Below, in pieces: positions 3,816 to 63,152 of a stretch of DNA of 64,000 nucleotides. This DNA comes from Escherichia coli (GTDB taxonomy: Bacteria; Pseudomonadota; Gammaproteobacteria; Enterobacterales; Enterobacteriaceae), in assembly GCF_017348835.2 (NCBI RefSeq), contig NZ_CP071375.1; one strand, given 5' to 3'. The position numbers and the translations under genes are program-made. Each line of letters opens with the position of its first letter. Positions within the stretch are counted from its first letter, which is position 1. The notes under the pieces were generated by a model that did no database searches, had not been told where the DNA came from, and worked only from the letters and a program-made list of their open reading frames with translations.

Positions 3816-5231
3816 ATGACAGATCTTCCCGACAGCACCCGCTGGCAATTGTGGATTGTGGCTTTCGGCTTCTTTATGCAGTCGCTGGACACCACCATCG
3901 TAAACACCGCCCTTCCCTCAATGGCGCAAAGCCTCGGGGAAAGTCCGTTGCATATGCACATGGTCATTGTCTCTTATGTACTGACCGTGGCGGTGATGCT
4001 GCCCGCCAGCGGCTGGCTGGCGGACAAAGTCGGCGTGCGCAATATTTTCTTTACCGCCATCATGCTGTTTACTCTCGGTTCACTGTTTTGCGCGCTTTCC
4101 GGCACGCTGAACGAACTGTTGCTGGCACGCGCGTTACAGGGCGTGGGCGGTGCGATGATGGTGCCGGTCGGCAGGTTGACGGTGATGAAAATCGTACCGC
4201 GCGAGCAATATATGGCGGCGATGACCTTTGTCACGTTACCCGGTCAGGTCGGTCCGCTGCTCGGTCCGGCGCTTGGCGGTCTGCTGGTGGAGTACGCGTC
4301 GTGGCACTGGATCTTTTTGATCAACATTCCGGTGGGAATTATTGGTGCGATCGCCACATTGATGTTAATGCCGAACTATACCATGCAGACGCGGCGCTTT
4401 GATCTCTCCGGCTTTCTGTTGCTGGCGGTTGGCATGGCGGTATTAACCCTGGCGCTGGACGGCAGTAAAGGTACAGGTTTATCGCCGCTGGCGATTGCTG
4501 GCCTGGTCGCAGTTGGCGTGGTGGCACTGGTGCTTTATCTGCTGCACGCCAGAAATAACAACCGTGCCCTGTTCAGTCTGAAACTGTTCCGTACTCGTAC
4601 CTTTTCGCTGGGCCTGGCGGGGAGCTTTGCCGGACGTATTGGCAGTGGCATGTTGCCCTTTATGACACCGGTTTTCTTACAGATTGGCCTCGGTTTCTCA
4701 CCGTTTCATGCCGGACTGATGATGATCCCGATGGTGCTTGGCAGCATGGGAATGAAGCGAATTGTAGTTCAGGTGGTGAATCGCTTTGGTTATCGTCGGG
4801 TACTGGTAGCGACCACGCTGGGTCTGTCGCTGGTCACCCTACTGTTTATGACTACCGCTCTGCTGGGCTGGTACTATGTTTTGCCGTTCGTCCTGTTTTT
4901 ACAAGGAATGGTCAACTCGACGCGTTTCTCCTCTATGAACACCCTGACGCTGAAAGATCTCCCGGACAATCTGGCGAGCAGCGGCAACAGTCTGCTGTCG
5001 ATGATTATGCAATTGTCGATGAGTATCGGCGTCACCATCGCCGGGCTGTTGCTGGGACTTTTTGGTTCGCAGCATGTCAGCGTCGACAGCGGCACCACAC
5101 AAACCGTCTTTATGTACACCTGGCTTAGCATGGCGTTTATCATCGCCCTTCCGGCGTTCATCTTTGCCAGAGTGCCGAACGATACGCATCAAAATGTAGC
5201 TATTTCGCGGCGAAAAAGGAGCGCGCAATGA
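3816..5231 (+). CDS. mdtD: MFS transporter MdtD (471 aa)
   Basis: 471-aa ORF starting directly after mdtC stop; MFS-type hydrophobic profile; position in mdtABCD-baeSR operon. Confidence 0.9.
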
Positions 5232-6631
5232 AGTTCTGGCGACCCGGTATTACCGGCAAACTGTTTCTGGCGATTTTCGCCACCTGCATTGTCTTGCTGA
5301 TCAGTATGCACTGGGCGGTGCGTATCAGTTTTGAGCGTGGCTTTATTGATTACATCAAGCATGGTAATGAACAGCGATTACAACTGTTAAGTGATGCGCT
5401 TGGCGAGCAGTATGCGCAGCATGGCAACTGGCGCTTCCTGCGCAACAATGATCGCTTTGTCTTTCAGATCCTGCGTTCATTTGAACACGATAATTCGGAA
5501 GATAAACCCGGCCCGGGTATGCCACCACACGGCTGGCGTACTCAGTTCTGGGTGGTTGATCAAAACAACAAGGTGCTGGTTGGTCCGCGAGCGCCGATTC
5601 CACCTGACGGTACACGGCGACCCATTCTGGTCAACGGTGCGGAAGTGGGCGCGGTGATTGCCTCCCCCGTTGAGCGGCTGACCCGCAATACTGATATCAA
5701 TTTCGATAAACAACAGCGGCAAACCAGCTGGCTGATTGTCGCCCTGGCAACGTTACTCGCGGCGCTCGCCACCTTTCTGCTGGCGCGTGGTCTTTTGGCC
5801 CCGGTCAAACGGCTGGTGGACGGCACGCACAAACTGGCGGCGGGCGATTTCACAACCCGCGTGACGCCCACCAGTGAAGATGAACTGGGCAAACTGGCGC
5901 AAGACTTCAACCAGCTTGCCAGCACGCTGGAGAAAAACCAGCAAATGCGGCGCGATTTTATGGCCGATATTTCTCACGAACTGCGTACGCCATTAGCGGT
6001 GCTGCGCGGTGAACTAGAAGCTATTCAGGATGGCGTGCGCAAATTCACGCCGGAGACGGTGGCGTCTTTACAGGCGGAGGTCGGTACACTGACCAAACTG
6101 GTTGACGATCTTCATCAGTTGTCGATGTCTGATGAAGGCGCTCTCGCCTATCAAAAAGCACCGGTAGATTTGATCCCACTGCTGGAAGTGGCGGGCGGCG
6201 CATTTCGCGAACGATTCGCCAGCCGTGGCCTGAAACTGCAATTTTCCCTGCCAGACAGTATTACCGTATTTGGCGATCGCGACCGTTTAATGCAGTTGTT
6301 CAATAATTTACTGGAAAACAGCCTGCGCTACACTGACAGCGGCGGCAGCCTGAAAATCTCTGCCGAGCAGCACGACAAAACGGTGCGCCTGACCTTTGCC
6401 GACAGTGCGCCAGGTGTCAGTGACGATCAGCTACAAAAATTGTTTGAACGTTTTTATCGCACCGAAGGTTCCCGCAACCGTGCCAGCGGCGGTTCCGGGC
6501 TGGGGTTGGCGATTTGCCTGAACATTGTTGAAGCACATAATGGCCGCATTATTGCTGCCCATTCGCCTTTTGGCGGGGTAAGCATTACAGTAGAGTTACC
6601 GCTGGAACGGGATTTACAGAGAGAAGTATGA
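5228..6631 (+). CDS. baeS: Envelope-stress sensor histidine kinase BaeS (467 aa)
   Basis: ATGA overlap with mdtD stop; H-box motif ISHELRTPL and HATPase C-terminal motifs in translation. Confidence 0.92.
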
Positions 6632-10301: not shown

Positions 10302-10459
10302 ATGCATAAGCCCTATCCCTGGTCACCGTCTTCCATTGACCACATCGATAGAATCTCCCTTCATAGCACGATGCCTTTCACGTAACGGCATCGTGCTCGC
10401 ACAGGTTCCGGCTAAGCACAACCAGAACGCGCATGTTTGACGCTTACCAAAAAATATTC

Positions 10460-10777
10460 TCACTCTCCACATTTGAATGTCAGACGAGCGACGCCATGTA
10501 ATCCTGCACCTTCTGTCTTCAGGTCAACTATCTGCATTTTTTTGCCCTGAGTAACACAGAAATGGGCTGCATCATTTTTTACTATATTTTCTGCACCAGA
10601 TATTCTACCCCTGGCTAAAGAAGCTTCGGCTTCGGTGTAGTATTGGTTATCGAGTTTACGCTGAATATTACTTTTATATGCAAGACCAAATTTACCGATA
10701 CTTGTCTCATCATTATGCACAGCACAACCAGACATAAGAAAAATACTAAATAATGATATAGCAACTATCTTTTTCAT
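10460..10777 (-). CDS. yegR: Lipoprotein-like uncharacterized protein YegR (105 aa)
   Basis: 105-aa ORF with signal peptide plus lipobox-like LMSGC; synteny. Confidence 0.8.
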   Translation of the reverse strand: MKKIVAISLFSIFLMSGCAVHNDETSIGKFGLAYKSNIQRKLDNQYYTEAEASLARGRISGAENIVKNDAAHFCVTQGKKMQIVDLKTEGAGLHGVARLTFKCGE

Positions 10778-18722: not shown

Positions 18723-19775
18723 TCAGGCGATAGTAATTTTGCTATCGAGATAAACGTCCTGCACGGCGTTAATCAGTTTCACGCCGTCAGCCATCGATTT
18801 CTTGAACGCCTTACGTCCAAGAATCAGCCCCATTCCGCCAGCGCGTTTGTTGATAACCGCAGTACGCACTGCATCGCTGAGGTCAGTTTCACCGCCTGCA
18901 GCACCGCCGGAGTTTATCAACCCGGCCCGGCCCATATAGCAGTTAGCTAACTGATAACGCACCAGATCAATCGGGTTTTCGCTGGTCAACTTGCTGTACA
19001 CGCGATCGTCTGTATAACCGTAATTAACCGCTTTATAGCCGCCGTTATTTTCCGCCATTTTTTGTTTGACGATATCTGCACCTATGGTTGCCGCCAGATG
19101 GTTCGCCTGACCAGTCAGGTCGGCGGAGACATGGTAATCAACGCCATCTTTCTTAAAGGCGGAGTTACGCAAATAGGCCCACAGCACTGTCACCATGCCC
19201 AGCTCGTGCGCACGTTCAAAAGCCGCAGAAATTTCTTCAATCTGGCGACGTGACTCTTCCGAGCCAAAATAGATAGTCGCACCAACCGCCACCGCGCCCA
19301 TGTTGAACGCCTGCTCCACGCTGGCATACAGCGTTTGATCGTAGGTATTCGGGTAACTTAGCGTCTCGTTGTGATTAAGTTTGACGAGAAATGGAATGCG
19401 ATGCGCATAGCGCCGCGATACCGACGCCAACACGCCGTAAGTTGATGCCACACAGTTACAGCCCGCTTCGATCGCCAGTTCAACAATGTTTTTCGGGTCA
19501 AAGTAGAGCGGGTTAGCAGCAAATGAAGCTCCGGCAGAGTGCTCAACGCCCTGGTCAACCGGCAGAATAGAAAGATATCCTGTGCCAGCCAGACGCCCGG
19601 TGTTGTACAACGTCTGCATATTACGTAACACCGCTGGCGGGCGATTATTGTCAATCATCACGCGGTCTACGTAGTCATGTCCGGGGAGATAAAGCTGGTC
19701 AGAAGGAATAGTCATACAACGGTGCTGTAAAAGGTTGTCGGCGTCTTTGCCAAGCAACTGCGCAATATCTGTCAT
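18723..19775 (-). CDS. fbaB: Class I fructose-bisphosphate aldolase FbaB (350 aa)
   Basis: Start assigned to the internal ATG ([20 protein letters not shown]...) of the 374-aa track ORF; DhnA-type aldolase. Confidence 0.9.
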
Positions 19776-20031
19776 TACTATGCTCCCGTAAATTCCGATT
19801 GGATATCGGCTATGGATTGTCCTGGCCCGCCTTTTGCGGGCAATCATAATCCTGGTCGTTACGGGCGAGTTTTTCCATCTTTTGGATGTTTTTTCAGCGT
19901 TTTCTGTTGGCTCGATTCATCAGAAAAAATGTTAGCGCGGTCAAGTTTTCACCGCAAAGGTATTTAAAAGGTATTATTAAGTGGTATTGTCATCGCGTAC
20001 CTTACATTACCTGTCATGAAGGAATTAAAAG

Positions 20032-21309
20032 ATGAAAACAACAGCAAAGCTGTCGTTCATGATGTTTGTTGAATGGTTTATCTGGGGCGCGTGGTTTGTG
20101 CCATTGTGGTTGTGGTTAAGTAAAAGCGGTTTTAGTGCCGGAGAAATTGGCTGGTCCTATGCCTGTACCGCCATTGCGGCGATCCTGTCGCCAATTCTGG
20201 TTGGCTCCATCACTGACCGCTTTTTCTCGGCGCAAAAAGTGCTGGCGGTATTGATGTTCGCAGGCGCGCTGCTGATGTATTTCGCTGCGCAACAGACCAC
20301 TTTTGCCGGGTTCTTCCCGTTACTGCTGGCCTACTCGCTAACCTATATGCCGACCATTGCGCTGACTAACAGTATCGCTTTTGCCAACGTGCCGGATGTG
20401 GAGCGTGATTTCCCGCGCATTCGTGTGATGGGCACTATCGGTTGGATTGCCTCCGGTCTGGCATGTGGATTCTTGCCGCAAATGCTGGGGTATGCCGATA
20501 TCTCACCAACCAATATTCCATTACTGATTACCGCCGGAAGTTCTGCTCTACTCGGTGTGTTTGCGTTTTTCCTGCCCGACACGCCGCCAAAAAGCACCGG
20601 CAAAATGGATATTAAAGTCATGCTCGGCCTGGATGCGCTGATCCTGCTGCGCGATAAAAACTTCCTCGTTTTTTTCTTCTGTTCATTCCTGTTTGCGATG
20701 CCGTTGGCGTTCTATTACATCTTTGCCAATGGTTATCTGACCGAAGTCGGGATGAAAAACGCCACCGGCTGGATGACGCTCGGCCAGTTCTCTGAAATCT
20801 TCTTTATGCTCGCATTACCGTTTTTCACCAAACGCTTTGGTATCAAAAAGGTATTATTGCTTGGTCTGGTCACCGCTGCGATCCGCTATGGCTTCTTTAT
20901 TTACGGTAGTGCGGATGAATATTTCACCTACGCGTTACTGTTCCTCGGTATTTTGCTTCACGGCGTAAGTTACGATTTTTACTACGTTACCGCTTACATC
21001 TATGTCGATAAAAAAGCCCCCGTGCATATGCGTACCGCTGCGCAGGGGCTGATCACGCTCTGCTGCCAGGGCTTCGGCAGTTTGCTCGGCTATCGTCTTG
21101 GCGGTGTGATGATGGAAAAGATGTTCGCTTATCAGGAACCGGTAAACGGACTGACTTTCAACTGGTCCGGGATGTGGACTTTTGGCGCGGTGATGATTGC
21201 CATTATCGCCGTGCTGTTCATGATCTTTTTCCGCGAATCCGACAACGAAATTACGGCTATCAAGGTCGATGATCGCGATATTGCGTTGACACAAGGGGAA
21301 GTTAAATGA
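20032..21309 (+). CDS. yegT: MFS nucleoside transporter YegT (425 aa)
   Basis: 425-aa 12-TM protein; NupG/XapB-like; synteny. Confidence 0.88.
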   Translation: MKTTAKLSFMMFVEWFIWGAWFVPLWLWLSKSGFSAGEIGWSYACTAIAAILSPILVGSITDRFFSAQKVLAVLMFAGALLMYFAAQQTTFAGFFPLLLAYSLTYMPTIALTNSIAFANVPDVERDFPRIRVMGTIGWIASGLACGFLPQMLGYADISPTNIPLLITAGSSALLGVFAFFLPDTPPKSTGKMDIKVMLGLDALILLRDKNFLVFFFCSFLFAMPLAFYYIFANGYLTEVGMKNATGWMTLGQFSEIFFMLALPFFTKRFGIKKVLLLGLVTAAIRYGFFIYGSADEYFTYALLFLGILLHGVSYDFYYVTAYIYVDKKAPVHMRTAAQGLITLCCQGFGSLLGYRLGGVMMEKMFAYQEPVNGLTFNWSGMWTFGAVMIAIIAVLFMIFFRESDNEITAIKVDDRDIALTQGEVK

Positions 21310-22310
21310 AAACAGAACGTATTCTCGGTGCTCTTTATGGGCAGGCGTTAGGGGATGCGATGGGGATGCCCTCCGAGCTTTGGCCACGCAGCCGCGTTAA
21401 AGCATACTTTGGCTGGATTGACCGTTTTCTGCCTGGACCAAAGGAGAATAACGCGGCCTGTTATTTTAACCGCGCCGAATTCACCGACGATACCTCGATG
21501 GCGCTGTGTCTGGCGGATGCGTTGCTGGAACGTGAAGGCAAGATCGATCCGGATCTGATTGGGCGTAATATCCTCGACTGGGCGCTGCGTTTCGACGCCT
21601 TCAACAAAAACGTGCTAGGTCCGACCTCGAAGATTGCGCTTAACGCCATTCGCGACGGTAAACCCGTTGCTGAACTGGATAACAACGGCGTGACCAACGG
21701 CGCAGCGATGCGCGTCTCGCCATTAGGTTGTTTGCTTCCGGCGCGTGATGTTGATTCCTTTATTGATGATGTGGCGCTGGCGTCCAGCCCGACCCATAAA
21801 TCCGATCTGGCGGTTGCAGGTGCGGTAGTCATCGCATGGGCGATTTCTCGTGCCATTGACGGAGAAAGCTGGTCAGCAATTGTTGATTCACTGCCTTCAA
21901 TTGCGCGACATGCACAGCAAAAACGCATCACTACCTTCAGCGCCTCACTGGCGGCGCGGCTGGAGATTGCGCTGAAAATTGTGCGCAATGCAGACGGCAC
22001 TGAATCCGCCAGCGAACAGCTTTACCAGGTCGTTGGCGCAGGTACCAGCACTATTGAGTCCGTTCCGTGCGCCATTGCGCTGGTTGAACTGGCACAAACC
22101 GACCCGAACCGTTGCGCCGTCCTCTGCGCTAACCTTGGCGGCGATACAGACACCATCGGTGCTATGGCGACGGCAATCTGCGGCGCGTTGCATGGCATTA
22201 ACGCTATCGATCCTGCGTTAAAGGCGGAACTGGATGCGGTAAATCAGCTTGATTTCAACCGCTATGCCACAGCGCTGGCGAAGTATCGTCAACAACGGGA
22301 GGCGGCATGA
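21306..22310 (+). CDS. yegU: ADP-ribosylglycohydrolase-family protein YegU (334 aa)
   Basis: ATGA overlap with yegT stop; ADP-ribosylglycohydrolase family signature (GDAMG...TDDT). Confidence 0.85.
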   Translation: MKTERILGALYGQALGDAMGMPSELWPRSRVKAYFGWIDRFLPGPKENNAACYFNRAEFTDDTSMALCLADALLEREGKIDPDLIGRNILDWALRFDAFNKNVLGPTSKIALNAIRDGKPVAELDNNGVTNGAAMRVSPLGCLLPARDVDSFIDDVALASSPTHKSDLAVAGAVVIAWAISRAIDGESWSAIVDSLPSIARHAQQKRITTFSASLAARLEIALKIVRNADGTESASEQLYQVVGAGTSTIESVPCAIALVELAQTDPNRCAVLCANLGGDTDTIGAMATAICGALHGINAIDPALKAELDAVNQLDFNRYATALAKYRQQREAA

Positions 22311-23272
22311 GCGGCGCTCGATTACACACGCTGCTGCCTGAATTAACCACGCGTCAGCCGGTTATGGTGATTGGCGCGGCAGTCATTGATGTGATCGCCG
22401 ACGCTTATGCCCTCCCCTGGCGTGGGTGCGATATCGAACTGAAACAGCAGAGCGTTAACGTTGGCGGCTGCGCACTGAATATTGCCGTGGCGTTAAAGCG
22501 CCTCGGCATCGAAGCGGGTAAAGCCTTGCCGCTCGGTCAGGGCGTGTGGGCGGAGATTATTCGCAACCGGATGGCAAAAGAGGGCTTAATCAGCCTGATC
22601 GATAACGCCGAAGGTGATAACGGCTGGTGTCTGGCGCTGGTTGAGCCGGATGGCGAACGCACTTTTATGTCATTCAGCGGTGTGGAAAATCAGTGGAATC
22701 GCCAGTGGCTGGCGCGATTAACCGTTGCGCCTGGCAGCCTGCTCTATTTTTCCGGTTATCAACTGGCCTCGCCCTGCGGCGAATTGTTAGTGGAATGGCT
22801 GGAAAAGCTGCAAGACGTGACGCCGTTTATCGATTTTGGCCCACGTATTGGCGATATCCCGGACGCATTACTGGCGCGGATCATGGCCTGTCGACCTTTA
22901 GTGTCACTCAATCGTCAAGAGGCTGAGATTGCCGCCGAACGTTTTGCTTTATCCGCAGAGATAACAACACTTGGCAAGCAATGGCAGGAGAAATTTGCCG
23001 CGCCGTTGATCGTTCGTCTCGATAAAGAAGGCGCATGGTATTTCAGCAACGACGCTTCTGGCTGCATTCCGGCATATCCAAGGCAAGTTGTAGATACCAT
23101 TGGGGCGGGCGACAGTCATGCAGGTGGCGTACTTGCCGGGCTGGCTTCTGGTCTGCCACTGGCGGATGCCGTATTACTGGGCAATGCAGTGGCGTCGTGG
23201 GTTGTCGGGCATCGGGGCGGTGATTGTGCGCCAACGCGCGAGGAACTACTCCTCGCACACAAAAACGTATAG
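22307..23272 (+). CDS. yegV: PfkB/ribokinase-family sugar or nucleoside kinase YegV (321 aa)
   Basis: ATGA overlap with yegU stop; PfkB C-terminal motif DTIGAGDSHAGG. Confidence 0.85.
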   Translation: MSGARLHTLLPELTTRQPVMVIGAAVIDVIADAYALPWRGCDIELKQQSVNVGGCALNIAVALKRLGIEAGKALPLGQGVWAEIIRNRMAKEGLISLIDNAEGDNGWCLALVEPDGERTFMSFSGVENQWNRQWLARLTVAPGSLLYFSGYQLASPCGELLVEWLEKLQDVTPFIDFGPRIGDIPDALLARIMACRPLVSLNRQEAEIAAERFALSAEITTLGKQWQEKFAAPLIVRLDKEGAWYFSNDASGCIPAYPRQVVDTIGAGDSHAGGVLAGLASGLPLADAVLLGNAVASWVVGHRGGDCAPTREELLLAHKNV

Positions 23273-23992
23273 ATCGCTGCGACAGTGGCTAATGCTGTAC
23301 TCAATAGGCCGTTGCTGTTGGTCAAGCGCCACTTGCTTGATCACCAGCACCGGTATTTTGCTATCTAACTGAATATGTGACTGAAACTCGGCATCCGGCA
23401 TCCGGGCGCTAACGCGGGAACGCGTACGTTGTGGGTAAATGTGCTGGCTGCGGAAATAGTCATAAAGAGAAATTCCGATGGCATCAACATCATGAATTAA
23501 ATGCGCCGGAACCCACGATTCCTCAATCGATACCGCTTCTTCATCGACATAGCGAATACGCTTAAGCAAAAAGACATCACTTCCCGCTTCGACCGCCAGC
23601 TGCTGCGCGACTTCTTCGGGACATTTCACGACACGCTTGTTAACCCATAGCGTATCGGGCTTTTTCCCGCGCAATACCACCTGCTGAGAAAAACCTCGCG
23701 CTTCTTTCAACGAGTATTCGAAGATGTTGTTGATCTGCGTGCCGTAACCACGCGAACGCGTCACCACGCCCTCTTCTTCCAGCGCCTGCATCGCCTTGCG
23801 CACCGTAATGCGCGAAACGCCGGTTAACTGACTTAAATCACGCTCACCGGGCAAAATATTGCCATGCTCCAGCACCCCGCTGCGCACGGCATTTTTTACC
23901 GTTTCGGCAAACTTAATATAAAGCGGCGTGTTATCCGCCGCTAAAATACGCTCGTTCAGTTGGGCAATCAGCTGGGTATGCGCTTGTTCCAT
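23246..23992 (-). CDS. yegW: GntR-family transcriptional regulator YegW (248 aa)
   Basis: N-terminal GntR HTH, UTRA-like C-terminus; convergent 27-nt overlap with yegV. Confidence 0.85.
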   Translation of the reverse strand: MEQAHTQLIAQLNERILAADNTPLYIKFAETVKNAVRSGVLEHGNILPGERDLSQLTGVSRITVRKAMQALEEEGVVTRSRGYGTQINNIFEYSLKEARGFSQQVVLRGKKPDTLWVNKRVVKCPEEVAQQLAVEAGSDVFLLKRIRYVDEEAVSIEESWVPAHLIHDVDAIGISLYDYFRSQHIYPQRTRSRVSARMPDAEFQSHIQLDSKIPVLVIKQVALDQQQRPIEYSISHCRSDLYVFVCEE

Positions 23993-62002: not shown

Positions 62003-63152
62003 TACGTTTCACCTTCAGCAGTGCGATAAGCAAATCGAACAGCGCGTCGGTAAGCACCGCCAGAACAATTACCGGGATCACCCCCAGCAACACTAAATCA
62101 ATGGCGCTGCTTAGCAGCCCCTGGAAAACCAGCGCACCAAAACCGCCTGCGCCGATTAACGCCGCAATCACCGCCATACCTACAGTTTGTACCATCACCA
62201 CCCGCAGGCTGCGCAGAAATACCGGTAACGCCAGTGGTAACTGAACATGCAGGAATCGCTGCGCCCCGCTCATCCCCATCGCTCTGGCGCTTTCCAGCAC
62301 ATCGCGCGGGATCTGGTTCAAACCGACTACCACGCCGCGCACCAGCGGCAGCAAGGCATAGAGCACCAGCGCAATCAGTGCGGGTGTCATTCCGGTTCCT
62401 GCTATGCCGAGCTTCCCCAGCCACGGAAAGGCCGTCACCAGCGCGGCAAGCGGCGCAATCAACAGGCCAAAGAGCGCCACCGAAGGCACGGTCTGAATGA
62501 CATTGAGCAGAGAAAAAATCGCCCCCTGCCGCGCGGTGGAAAAGTAGCACCAGATGCCCAATGGCACACCAATCACTAACGCAGGCAGCACCGCACCAAA
62601 CAGCAACGTCAGATGTTGTGCCAGCGCGTCGTCAAACACATCCTGACGGTTGGCGTATTCTTTCATTAGCGAGAGATCGTTAAGCGTGCCGGAGTAAAGC
62701 AACCACAGCGGAATAATGGCAATCTGCATATGCAACAACCAGCGCCACAGCGGATGCGTGGAGATTCGGCGGATGGCATCGCTACAGGCCAGCAATGCCA
62801 GCGCCGCAGCCAGCCAGAAACCACTGCCGAGGCTGGTACGCGCCAGCGCACTGCCATTTTGCGCCAGTTGGGTCGCCGCCTTTCCAGCTCCCCACACCAG
62901 CAATACGAAGACGAATTGCGCCAGAATGAGTGCAAAAATGCTGCCTTTTTTAGCGGGAATAAAACAGGCTGTCAGCCAGGCGCAACCAACGCCCACCAGC
63001 ATCCAGATCGTTTGCGGCCACAGTTGCCAGAGATGACGCCCTTCACCCGAGACTAAACGATTAGGCGCGTAACTGATAAACGGCAGCGCCGCTGCGATTG
63101 CCGTCAGCAACATCAGCAGCGCCAGAACAGGATTAATACGTAGATAAGTCAC
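61995..63152 (-). CDS. yehY: Osmoprotectant ABC transporter permease YehY (385 aa)
   Basis: ABC permease; 8-nt overlap with yehX start. Confidence 0.9.

Follow-up and report, generated by a model that had tools for sequence, protein, structure and literature searches.

The fbaB-yegT locus and the repressor GgaR

The stretch of DNA analysed here (64,000 nucleotides, called the window below; contig NZ_CP071375.1 of RefSeq assembly GCF_017348835.2) belongs to the Escherichia coli chromosome, and this work deals with an array of GGTATT direct repeats (O1) in the spacer between fbaB and yegT, very probably the primary operator through which the GntR-family regulator GgaR (YegW) represses the yegTUV operon. 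At ≥95% identity, the 401 bases around the repeats are matched in 5,421 of the 5,426 complete genomes of E. coli, annotated with fbaB on one side and yegT on the other. The gene fbaB lies on the minus strand and starts (ATG) at about 19775 (open reading frame list and RefSeq), while yegT (20032-21309, plus strand) encodes a member of the nucleoside:H+ symporter family, as judged from the open reading frame, Pfam/NCBIfam matches and RefSeq. Its ATG lies at 2,178,821 in strain MG1655, equivalent to position 20032 of the window (offset 2,158,789). On the same strand follow yegU and yegV, whose products match the ADP-ribosylglycohydrolase family and the PfkB kinases, respectively (Pfam/NCBIfam), and the three genes form the operon targeted by GgaR (20032-23272; open reading frames, Pfam/NCBIfam and RefSeq annotation). 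Convergent with yegV, on the minus strand, lies yegW (ggaR, 23249-23992), coding for a GntR/HutC-subfamily repressor that RefSeq names DNA-binding transcriptional regulator GgaR.

YegW has the architecture expected of the HutC subfamily of GntR regulators, namely a winged helix-turn-helix at the N terminus (PF00392, residues 29-87, E = 3e-16) and a C-terminal UTRA effector domain of chorismate-lyase fold (PF07702, residues 108-242, E = 2e-36), and its closest solved structures are those of YvoA/NagR, the DNA complex 4WWC among them. The winged helix is preceded by an extension of ~22 residues (window 23927-23992, minus strand) of a kind that MngR does not have, and which is kept among the orthologues, with L8 and L12 invariant and H5, R15 and D20-P23 nearly invariant. 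The recognition helix reads VSRITVRKA; its comparison with those of MngR and NanR failed as a discriminator, the S-R-x-T-V-R helix being generic to HutC proteins.

For comparative purposes, a scan for YegT with one genome per species gave 80 loci, whose 80 unique upstream sequences were compared without gaps. They include Escherichia, Citrobacter, Salmonella diarizonae, Klebsiella, Enterobacter, Raoultella, Kluyvera, Buttiauxella and Cedecea, and also Pectobacterium, Leminorella, Limnobaculum and others. The yegTUV-yegW cassette was syntenic wherever the sequence fetched sufficed, and yegW was found in 75 of these loci; the remaining five gave no full-length yegW match, largely since the fetched sequence or the contig stops first.

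The regulator, its target and its approximate binding region are already published. Saito et al. (2024; PMC10819704) renamed YegW as GgaR and linked it to glycogen accumulation. Their chromatin immunoprecipitation on microarrays (ChIP-chip) gave one genomic peak, located in the fbaB/yegT spacer and accompanied by a shoulder or second adjacent site inside yegT; a single 3.3-kb yegTUV mRNA was repressed ~30-fold by GgaR with fbaB unaffected, ADP-glucose released the protein from DNA in vitro, and its abundance was about 10 dimers per cell, so that the authors likened it to LacI as a low-copy, single-target regulator (PMC10819704). The guess of the initial annotation that YegW regulates the operon is thereby backed by published ChIP-chip, gel-shift and expression data. 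The text of that article contains none of the terms footprint, consensus, palindrome or direct repeat, nor the word GGTATT, and reports no recognition sequence, and no other paper describing a GgaR operator was found in the literature searched (EcoCyc, RegulonDB and RegPrecise lay outside that search). What is new here with respect to Saito et al. (2024) is the operator at the nucleotide level, its direct-repeat architecture, its conservation and a selected intragenic copy.

Direct repeats upstream of yegT

GGTATT occurs three times on the plus strand, at 19959-19964, 19970-19975 and 19983-19988, with start-to-start distances of 11 and 13 bp, and they span the interval from 73 to 44 bp upstream of the yegT ATG. 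Both the spacing and the position agree with the initial annotation, whose quoted string corresponds to 19956-19992. The description of the spacing as one helical turn stands for the 11-bp pair and does not hold for the third unit, which is ~100 degrees out of phase with the first. The real unit exceeds the hexamer, as the nonamer AAAGGTATT is found exactly at 19956-19964 (unit 1) and again, 11 bp downstream, at 19967-19975, where it begins unit 2, AAAGGTATT(AT), at 19967-19977. In addition, TTAA[A/G][A/T]GGTATT recurs at a 13-bp interval. Unit 3 has the form TGGTAnnnT (19982-19990), in which TGGTA and T19990 are (nearly) invariant and 19987-19989 vary.

Further downstream, CGTACC (19996-20001) reads GGTACG on the minus strand, and its GTACC is the sole inverted element at O1, 15 bp from unit 3 centre to centre and present at this offset in 70 of the 80 unique sequences. 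It is possibly a fourth, inverted half-site, or else a sequence surrounding the point where transcription begins. A further direct repeat at +35 (GGyGTA) was also considered; the bases conserved there are GTACC and not GG, so an inverted half-site or a start-site element seems to fit this position better.

The bare pattern is not significant on its own. GGTATT is twice as common in the window as in shuffled sequences (51 against 25.6), and for a window of 64 kb a first-order Markov model predicts ~0.57 cases of any hexamer appearing three times on one strand inside 30 bp, with three observed. The two other triples, GTGGTT at 20091-20120 (in a part of yegT with recurring Trp/Leu/Val codons) and, near 62788, GCCAGC, look like coding-sequence coincidences. 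Judged by these counts only, O1 might be a functionless product of chance as well, and it is its conservation that speaks to this point.

Conservation of the array

Every one of the 80 orthologous loci has the pattern GGTA-N7-GGTA-N9-nGTA no more than 200 bp upstream of yegT. That GGTA does not vary at the anchor positions is partly circular, given that the loci were anchored on that very pattern, and therefore the non-circular evidence is the recovery of the anchor in every locus. It is evident how information concentrates in the units, with means of 1.95 bits per position for unit 1 (AAAGGTATT), 1.97 for unit 2 and 1.98 for the TGGTA of unit 3, followed by 1.65 for GTACC (19997-20001), compared to 0.64 both for the spacers between the units and for other upstream positions. 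T19990 is invariant, and so are the GG of every unit and the AAA before units 1 and 2.

The 11/13 spacing is constant in 83 of 84 species, the exception being Pantoea (YegW 62% identical), with 12 bp between units 2 and 3 and a series GGTATT, GGTATC, GGTGCT and GGTTCT at offsets 0, 11, 23 and 34. The array, with the same spacing, was also found in Yersinia, Providencia and Aeromonas, which were reached through YegW homologues of 62-79% identity, and it remains with yegT in six loci where fbaB is not the neighbour. The check proposed with the initial annotation, conservation in other Enterobacteria, thus comes out in its favour, repeats and phasing being invariant across Enterobacterales; the informative point is the constancy of the spacing rather than helical phasing. 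Metagenome contigs were scanned with an exact 23-base version of the motif, and of the 80 loci examined 79 had it 40-130 bp upstream of a yegT start.

The explanation by chance is effectively refuted by the footprint conservation together with the matrix (see below) and metagenome scans: every locus keeps the pattern, its units invariant and its spacers variable, metagenomes show the exact motif linked to yegT, and the repeats lie within the interval bound experimentally by GgaR (see below). The number of triples expected in such a window, and the two others present in this one, are the points in its favour, and we give it next to no probability.

In Aeromonas jandaei, where YegW and its E. 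coli counterpart are 79% identical, transposase genes of the IS110 family lie on both sides of the cassette (4550-5578 and 10305-10532 of the A. jandaei contig), which suggests a horizontal acquisition from an enterobacterium. The array came along with the cassette, its first unit altered to GGTGCT.

Position of the array within the GgaR-bound DNA

We mapped the gel-shift primers of Saito et al. (2024; PMC10819704) onto the window to place each of their probes. The spacer probe (19520-20018) and probe-2 (19842-20082, at 5 pmol) are bound by GgaR, while probe-1 (19652-19926) and probe-3 (20011-20351) are not, which places the primary determinant at ~19900-20018. The conserved array, at 19956-20001, falls inside this interval. 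Further into yegT, probe-4 (ending at 20750) and probe-6 (starting at 20848) are not bound, and probe-5 (20603-20900) is bound at 10 pmol only. The proposal that the repeats form a multimeric regulator site for yegTUV gains support from this placement, from the conserved repeats and from a second copy located in the second bound probe (see below).

Promoter elements and the yegT leader

A consensus scan predicts a moderately conserved -35 hexamer, TTCACC (19948-19953, plus strand), separated by an 18-bp spacer from a predicted -10 hexamer, TATTAT (19972-19977, plus strand), that overlaps unit 2 of O1. With this arrangement (model A) transcription would start near 19984 and the units would fall at about -25, -14 and +1. 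Alternatively, the invariant bases of unit 3 (T19982, G19983, T19985, A19986 and T19990) coincide with an extended -10 of the form TGnTAnnnT (19982-19990). Under this second arrangement (model B, extended -10 TGgTATTGT) the start would be near 19997, with the units at about -38, -27 and -14 and GTACC at +1 to +5. Operator and promoter may therefore share bases at unit 3. The text supplements of a Cappable-seq study (PMC4782308) contain no yegT entry and none with coordinates beginning 21787.

This overlap raises the question of whether the repeats are mainly core-promoter elements (TATTAT, TGgTAnnnT and phased A-tracts that bend the DNA), with GgaR binding elsewhere in 19900-20018, for instance at the CGTACC region. 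TATTAT does score as a -10 hexamer, unit 3 keeps invariant precisely the bases of an extended -10 while those between them vary, and a CRP-like site (see below) would lie at about -60 from a start near 19997, a normal class I position. However, such an explanation does not account for the invariant GG of all units, which fall outside the -10 consensus positions of model A, or for the AAA before units 1 and 2. It also leaves unexplained the near-copy found in coding sequence, with non-preferred codons and in the other GgaR-bound probe. Besides, the two roles are compatible, as repression by occlusion requires such an overlap. We consider it unlikely that the repeats serve the promoter instead of GgaR.

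The CRP-like site, TGTTA-N6-TCAAG (TGTTAgcgcggTCAAG) with AAA/TTT flanks, is located at 19930-19945, 29 bp upstream of unit 1, with 1.79 bits in its core versus 0.64 in the flanks. Its 29-bp distance to unit 1 is constant, also in Yersinia, Providencia and Aeromonas, and it is conserved across Enterobacterales; it is an element separate from the GgaR operator. From a start near 19984 it would lie at about -46. Its conservation agrees with a CRP peak, fbaB<CRP>yegT, obtained by systematic evolution of ligands by exponential enrichment in a study that also described CRP repression of fbaB (Shimada et al., 2011; PMC3105977). No CytR-like GTTGCATT/TGCAA word was seen in 19900-20031, by eye only and with no formal scoring.

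An explanation of the conserved leader at the RNA level was rejected: the leader has no Rfam match, and no conserved RNA pairing was seen in 15 diverse yegT leaders, so that pairing does not explain the conservation of CGTACC. Escherichia leaders carry five extra bases compared to other genera, GTACCTTACATTACCTG against GTACCTTACCTG (20003-20007), and one further extra base between the Shine-Dalgarno region and the yegT ATG (20016-20018). A conserved upstream ATG in CATGAAGGA, which in most other genera is in frame and five codons upstream of yegT, is out of frame in E. coli due to these extra bases.

Two inverted repeats were also noticed in the spacer. One has 10-bp arms, TTTTCTGTTG...CATCAGAAAA, around GCTCGATT at 19900-19927 and shows little conservation in the ungapped comparison; its minus strand reads CTGATGAATCGAGCC, with a partial resemblance to the box of Cra (FruR), a regulator of fbaB. 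The other is GC-rich, GGATTGTCCTGGCCCGC / GCGGGCAATCATAATCC at 19814-19852 (17-nt arms and a 5-nt loop), and lies in the leader region of fbaB, on the minus strand.

A second copy inside yegT

A weight matrix built solely from non-Escherichia upstream sites was used to scan both strands of the window. O1 (19956) scored 61.0 bits and a second sequence (O2, 20836) 19.1 bits, with the rest of the window at -9.5 bits or below. This candidate auxiliary operator, TTTGGTATCAAAAAGGTATTATTGCTTGGTCTGGTCA (20836-20872, plus strand), covers codons 269-281 of yegT, 880 bp downstream of O1. The part at 20839-20872 reads GGTATCAAAAAGGTATTATTGCTTGGTCTGGTCA; 27 of its 34 bases are those of 19959-19992, and the 11/13 spacing is shared. 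Its units are GGTAT, GGTAT and GGTCT, all containing the GTMT half-site word. Across the 80 loci the only positive hits were O1 (80/80) and O2, at the same codon position (49/80). Both this restriction of hits to O1 and O2 and the place of the exact motif in metagenomes (just upstream of yegT in 79 of 80 loci) match a single-target regulator. Autoregulation of GgaR was rejected, the same matrix scan giving no motif match near yegW in any of the 80 loci.

O2 lies inside probe-5, the only other probe bound by GgaR, with a lower affinity (10 pmol, against 5 pmol for probe-2). The start of probe-6 (20848) removes unit 1 of O2, and the lack of binding to this probe is in line with the first pair of units being the minimum required. 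O2 therefore has two properties expected of an auxiliary operator, a second matching sequence bound more weakly and, as described next, a maintenance that goes beyond what the protein sequence requires.

The peptide encoded at O2, FGIKKVLLLGL, is invariant save for one Tyr at residue 1 and dictates part of the match (GGnATnAAnAAnGTnnTn). To separate codon from peptide, we compared the share of species with a motif-compatible codon to that in all other conserved columns of yegT with the same amino acid. GGT is used in a share of 0.78 at Gly270 and 0.62 at Gly278 (first and second of 32 columns; gene median 0.17), AAG in 0.95 at Lys273 (first of 12; median 0.25), and GTA in 0.53 at Val274 (first of 15; median 0.08). 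Among the 46 leucine columns, TTR at Leu275 ranks first (0.72; median 0.08) and CTT at Leu277 second (0.53; median 0.03), and TTT at Phe269 is second of 40 (0.96; median 0.35). The codons of O2 (TTT, GGT, ATT, AAG, GTA, TTA and CTT) are mostly non-preferred, while the adjoining conserved segment uses preferred ones. Since test and control columns share both species and gene, common descent is not by itself enough to account for these ranks, and we conclude from the codon pattern that O2 is under selection in many lineages.

It could still be argued that O1 is the GgaR operator and O2 is functionless, a by-product of FGIKKVLLLGL or perhaps a rare-codon pausing cluster whose weak binding in vitro is incidental. 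In its favour, GGnATnAAnAAnGTnnTn comes free with the peptide, the O2 probe needed twice the amount of protein required by O1, and O2 is degenerate (0 bits or less) in 31 of the 80 loci, including the group of Enterobacter, Lelliottia and Leclercia. Its overall synonymous diversity is average too, and a general scan of synonymous diversity in yegT did not flag it (rank 144 of 414), a scan that is insensitive to O2 because one large clade has lost it. On the other hand, at seven codons the motif-compatible choice takes first or second place in the gene, preferred codons are used in the conserved segment next to it, and ChIP-chip shows occupancy in vivo. We hold a functionless O2 to be less likely than not.

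The same diversity scan chiefly picked codons 244-263 and the yegT/yegU overlap. Apart from this overlap, codons 244-263 (20761-20820) have the lowest synonymous diversity of the gene, in an invariant protein segment with mostly preferred codons, a pattern closer to usual codon bias than to a regulatory element.

Comparison with known operators

As the probable GgaR operator, O1 belongs to the known class of direct-repeat GntR operators. It contains three same-strand copies of the GGTAT type, two of them exact nonamers, all three units carry the GTMT half-site word, and the spacing is fixed (that binding needs this spacing is suggested only indirectly, by probe-6). The HutC consensus is GTMTAKAC, within a NyGTMTAKACNy palindrome, and known direct-repeat exceptions are NagQ (TGGTATT), FarR (TGTATTAWTT), and NanR (TGGTATAW) (Suvorova et al., 2015; PMC4494728). 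No GTMTAKAC palindrome is present in O1, and neither are the abutting inverted half-sites with GT and AC 4 nt apart of the canonical sites. These canonical operators (NagR/YvoA and the DasR dre sites) share with O1 and O2 the GTMT half-site, which is GTAT in units 1-3 of O1 and GTCT in unit 3 of O2; they differ in being compact palindromes occupied by one dimer, whereas the half-sites of O1 are direct repeats 11-13 bp apart.

Within the HutC subfamily two cases come close. NagQ, a regulator of N-acetylglucosamine use in Xanthomonadales and related bacteria, is a HutC protein like GgaR, although a distinct regulator with a different regulon. Its TGGTATT direct repeats are essentially the same word as that of O1, the sites being compared here by the published word only (PMC4494728). 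FarR/MngR, an E. coli HutC paralogue 25% identical to YegW, represses an adjacent transport and catabolic operon through direct repeats with a GTATT core. They are more tightly spaced in the mngR-mngA spacer (TGTATTGTATTTGTATTATTT, minus strand) and have TGTATT instead of GGTATT as a core.

A close analogue in architecture is the operator of NanR at the E. coli nanA promoter, also composed of three head-to-tail GGTAT-type hexamers over the promoter of a catabolic and transport operon, and NanR, like GgaR, is a GntR-family repressor freed by a small-molecule effector. Three NanR dimers bind (GGTATA)3 cooperatively by means of a 32-residue N-terminal extension, one repeat being insufficient, and the operator needs at least two repeats in a fixed arrangement (PMC8012715). 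The differences are also clear: NanR belongs to the FadR subfamily (FCD domain) and YegW to HutC (UTRA domain), the repeats are GGTATA rather than GGTATT, and they lie 9 and 8 bp apart (read from MG1655) versus 11 and 13 bp in O1. The N-terminal extension of YegW, ~22 residues against 32, recalls that of NanR and is the only hint that GgaR might also bind cooperatively.

The similarity of these words could indicate that another protein occupies the repeats, either NanR or MngR, which in E. coli itself read similar direct repeats (GGTATA three times and TGTATT repeats, respectively), or a nucleoid protein drawn to AT-rich phased tracts, with GgaR recognizing something nearby. We find this very unlikely. 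The motif strictly co-occurs with the yegTUV-yegW cassette, its spacing of 11 and 13 bp is not the 9 and 8 bp of the NanR operator, and no data tie NanR or MngR to yegT. Moreover, GgaR ChIP-chip gives this locus only, and both probes bound by GgaR carry the array.

As to the pair of sites, the lac operators O1 and O2 offer a parallel, in which a single-target repressor likewise has its strong operator at the promoter and a second, weaker one in the first structural gene. The distance between them is 401 bp in lac and 880 bp between O1 and O2 of GgaR. LacI is a loop-forming tetramer; GgaR and the other HutC proteins are, to our knowledge, not known to tetramerise or to form loops.

A model of yegTUV repression

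In the interpretation that we favour, O1 would consist of two exact AAAGGTATT units 11 bp apart, a TGGTA that follows at 13 bp and, probably, a GGTAC in inverse orientation another 15 bp away, each unit corresponding to about one HutC half-site (GTMT) set head to tail. Two or more GgaR dimers would fill this array cooperatively (base contacts and stoichiometry are what we infer here). At the yegT promoter the array would cover both the -10 region and the start of transcription and so exclude RNA polymerase. As it overlaps the core promoter under both models, exclusion of the polymerase seems the most economical mechanism. The operon would be held ~30-fold repressed until an effector, reported to be ADP-glucose (PMC10819704), frees GgaR. 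O2, as a weaker copy, would probably aid repression, whether by looping to O1 or through a higher local concentration of the repressor.

Several facts weigh against this interpretation, besides the loss of O2 in many loci mentioned above. Published gel shifts and ChIP-chip localise GgaR only to ~120 bp at O1 and ~100-150 bp at O2, and ~10 dimers per cell limit those available to fill two multi-unit operators. Conservation of units 2 and 3 could partly reflect -10 function, considering that an extended -10 is made of exactly the bases that do not vary in unit 3, and promoter occlusion is what we infer from the overlap. Finally, the helix VSRITVRKA is typical of HutC proteins, palindrome binders included, and does not predict binding to direct repeats.

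More speculatively, GgaR might be the first HutC repressor with both a NanR-like multi-dimer direct-repeat array and an intragenic operator kept by codon selection across much of the Enterobacterales, the two sites together forming a repression loop of ~880 bp or a trap for the ~10 dimers per cell at their single target, an idea that we put forward tentatively and hold to be rather less than probable.

The overall picture of the circuit is unchanged, and this is a refinement of a known regulatory circuit and not a new kind of system. A 46-bp operator that is concrete and clearly divided into units, together with an intragenic second operator, makes the design of footprinting, mutagenesis and reporter experiments straightforward. 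The codon pattern of O2 is a clean example of a regulatory motif shaping coding sequence. For the family, O1 adds a well-supported case to the small set of direct-repeat (non-palindromic) GntR operators and lends itself to studying the way in which head-to-tail sites are read by a dimeric HutC protein.

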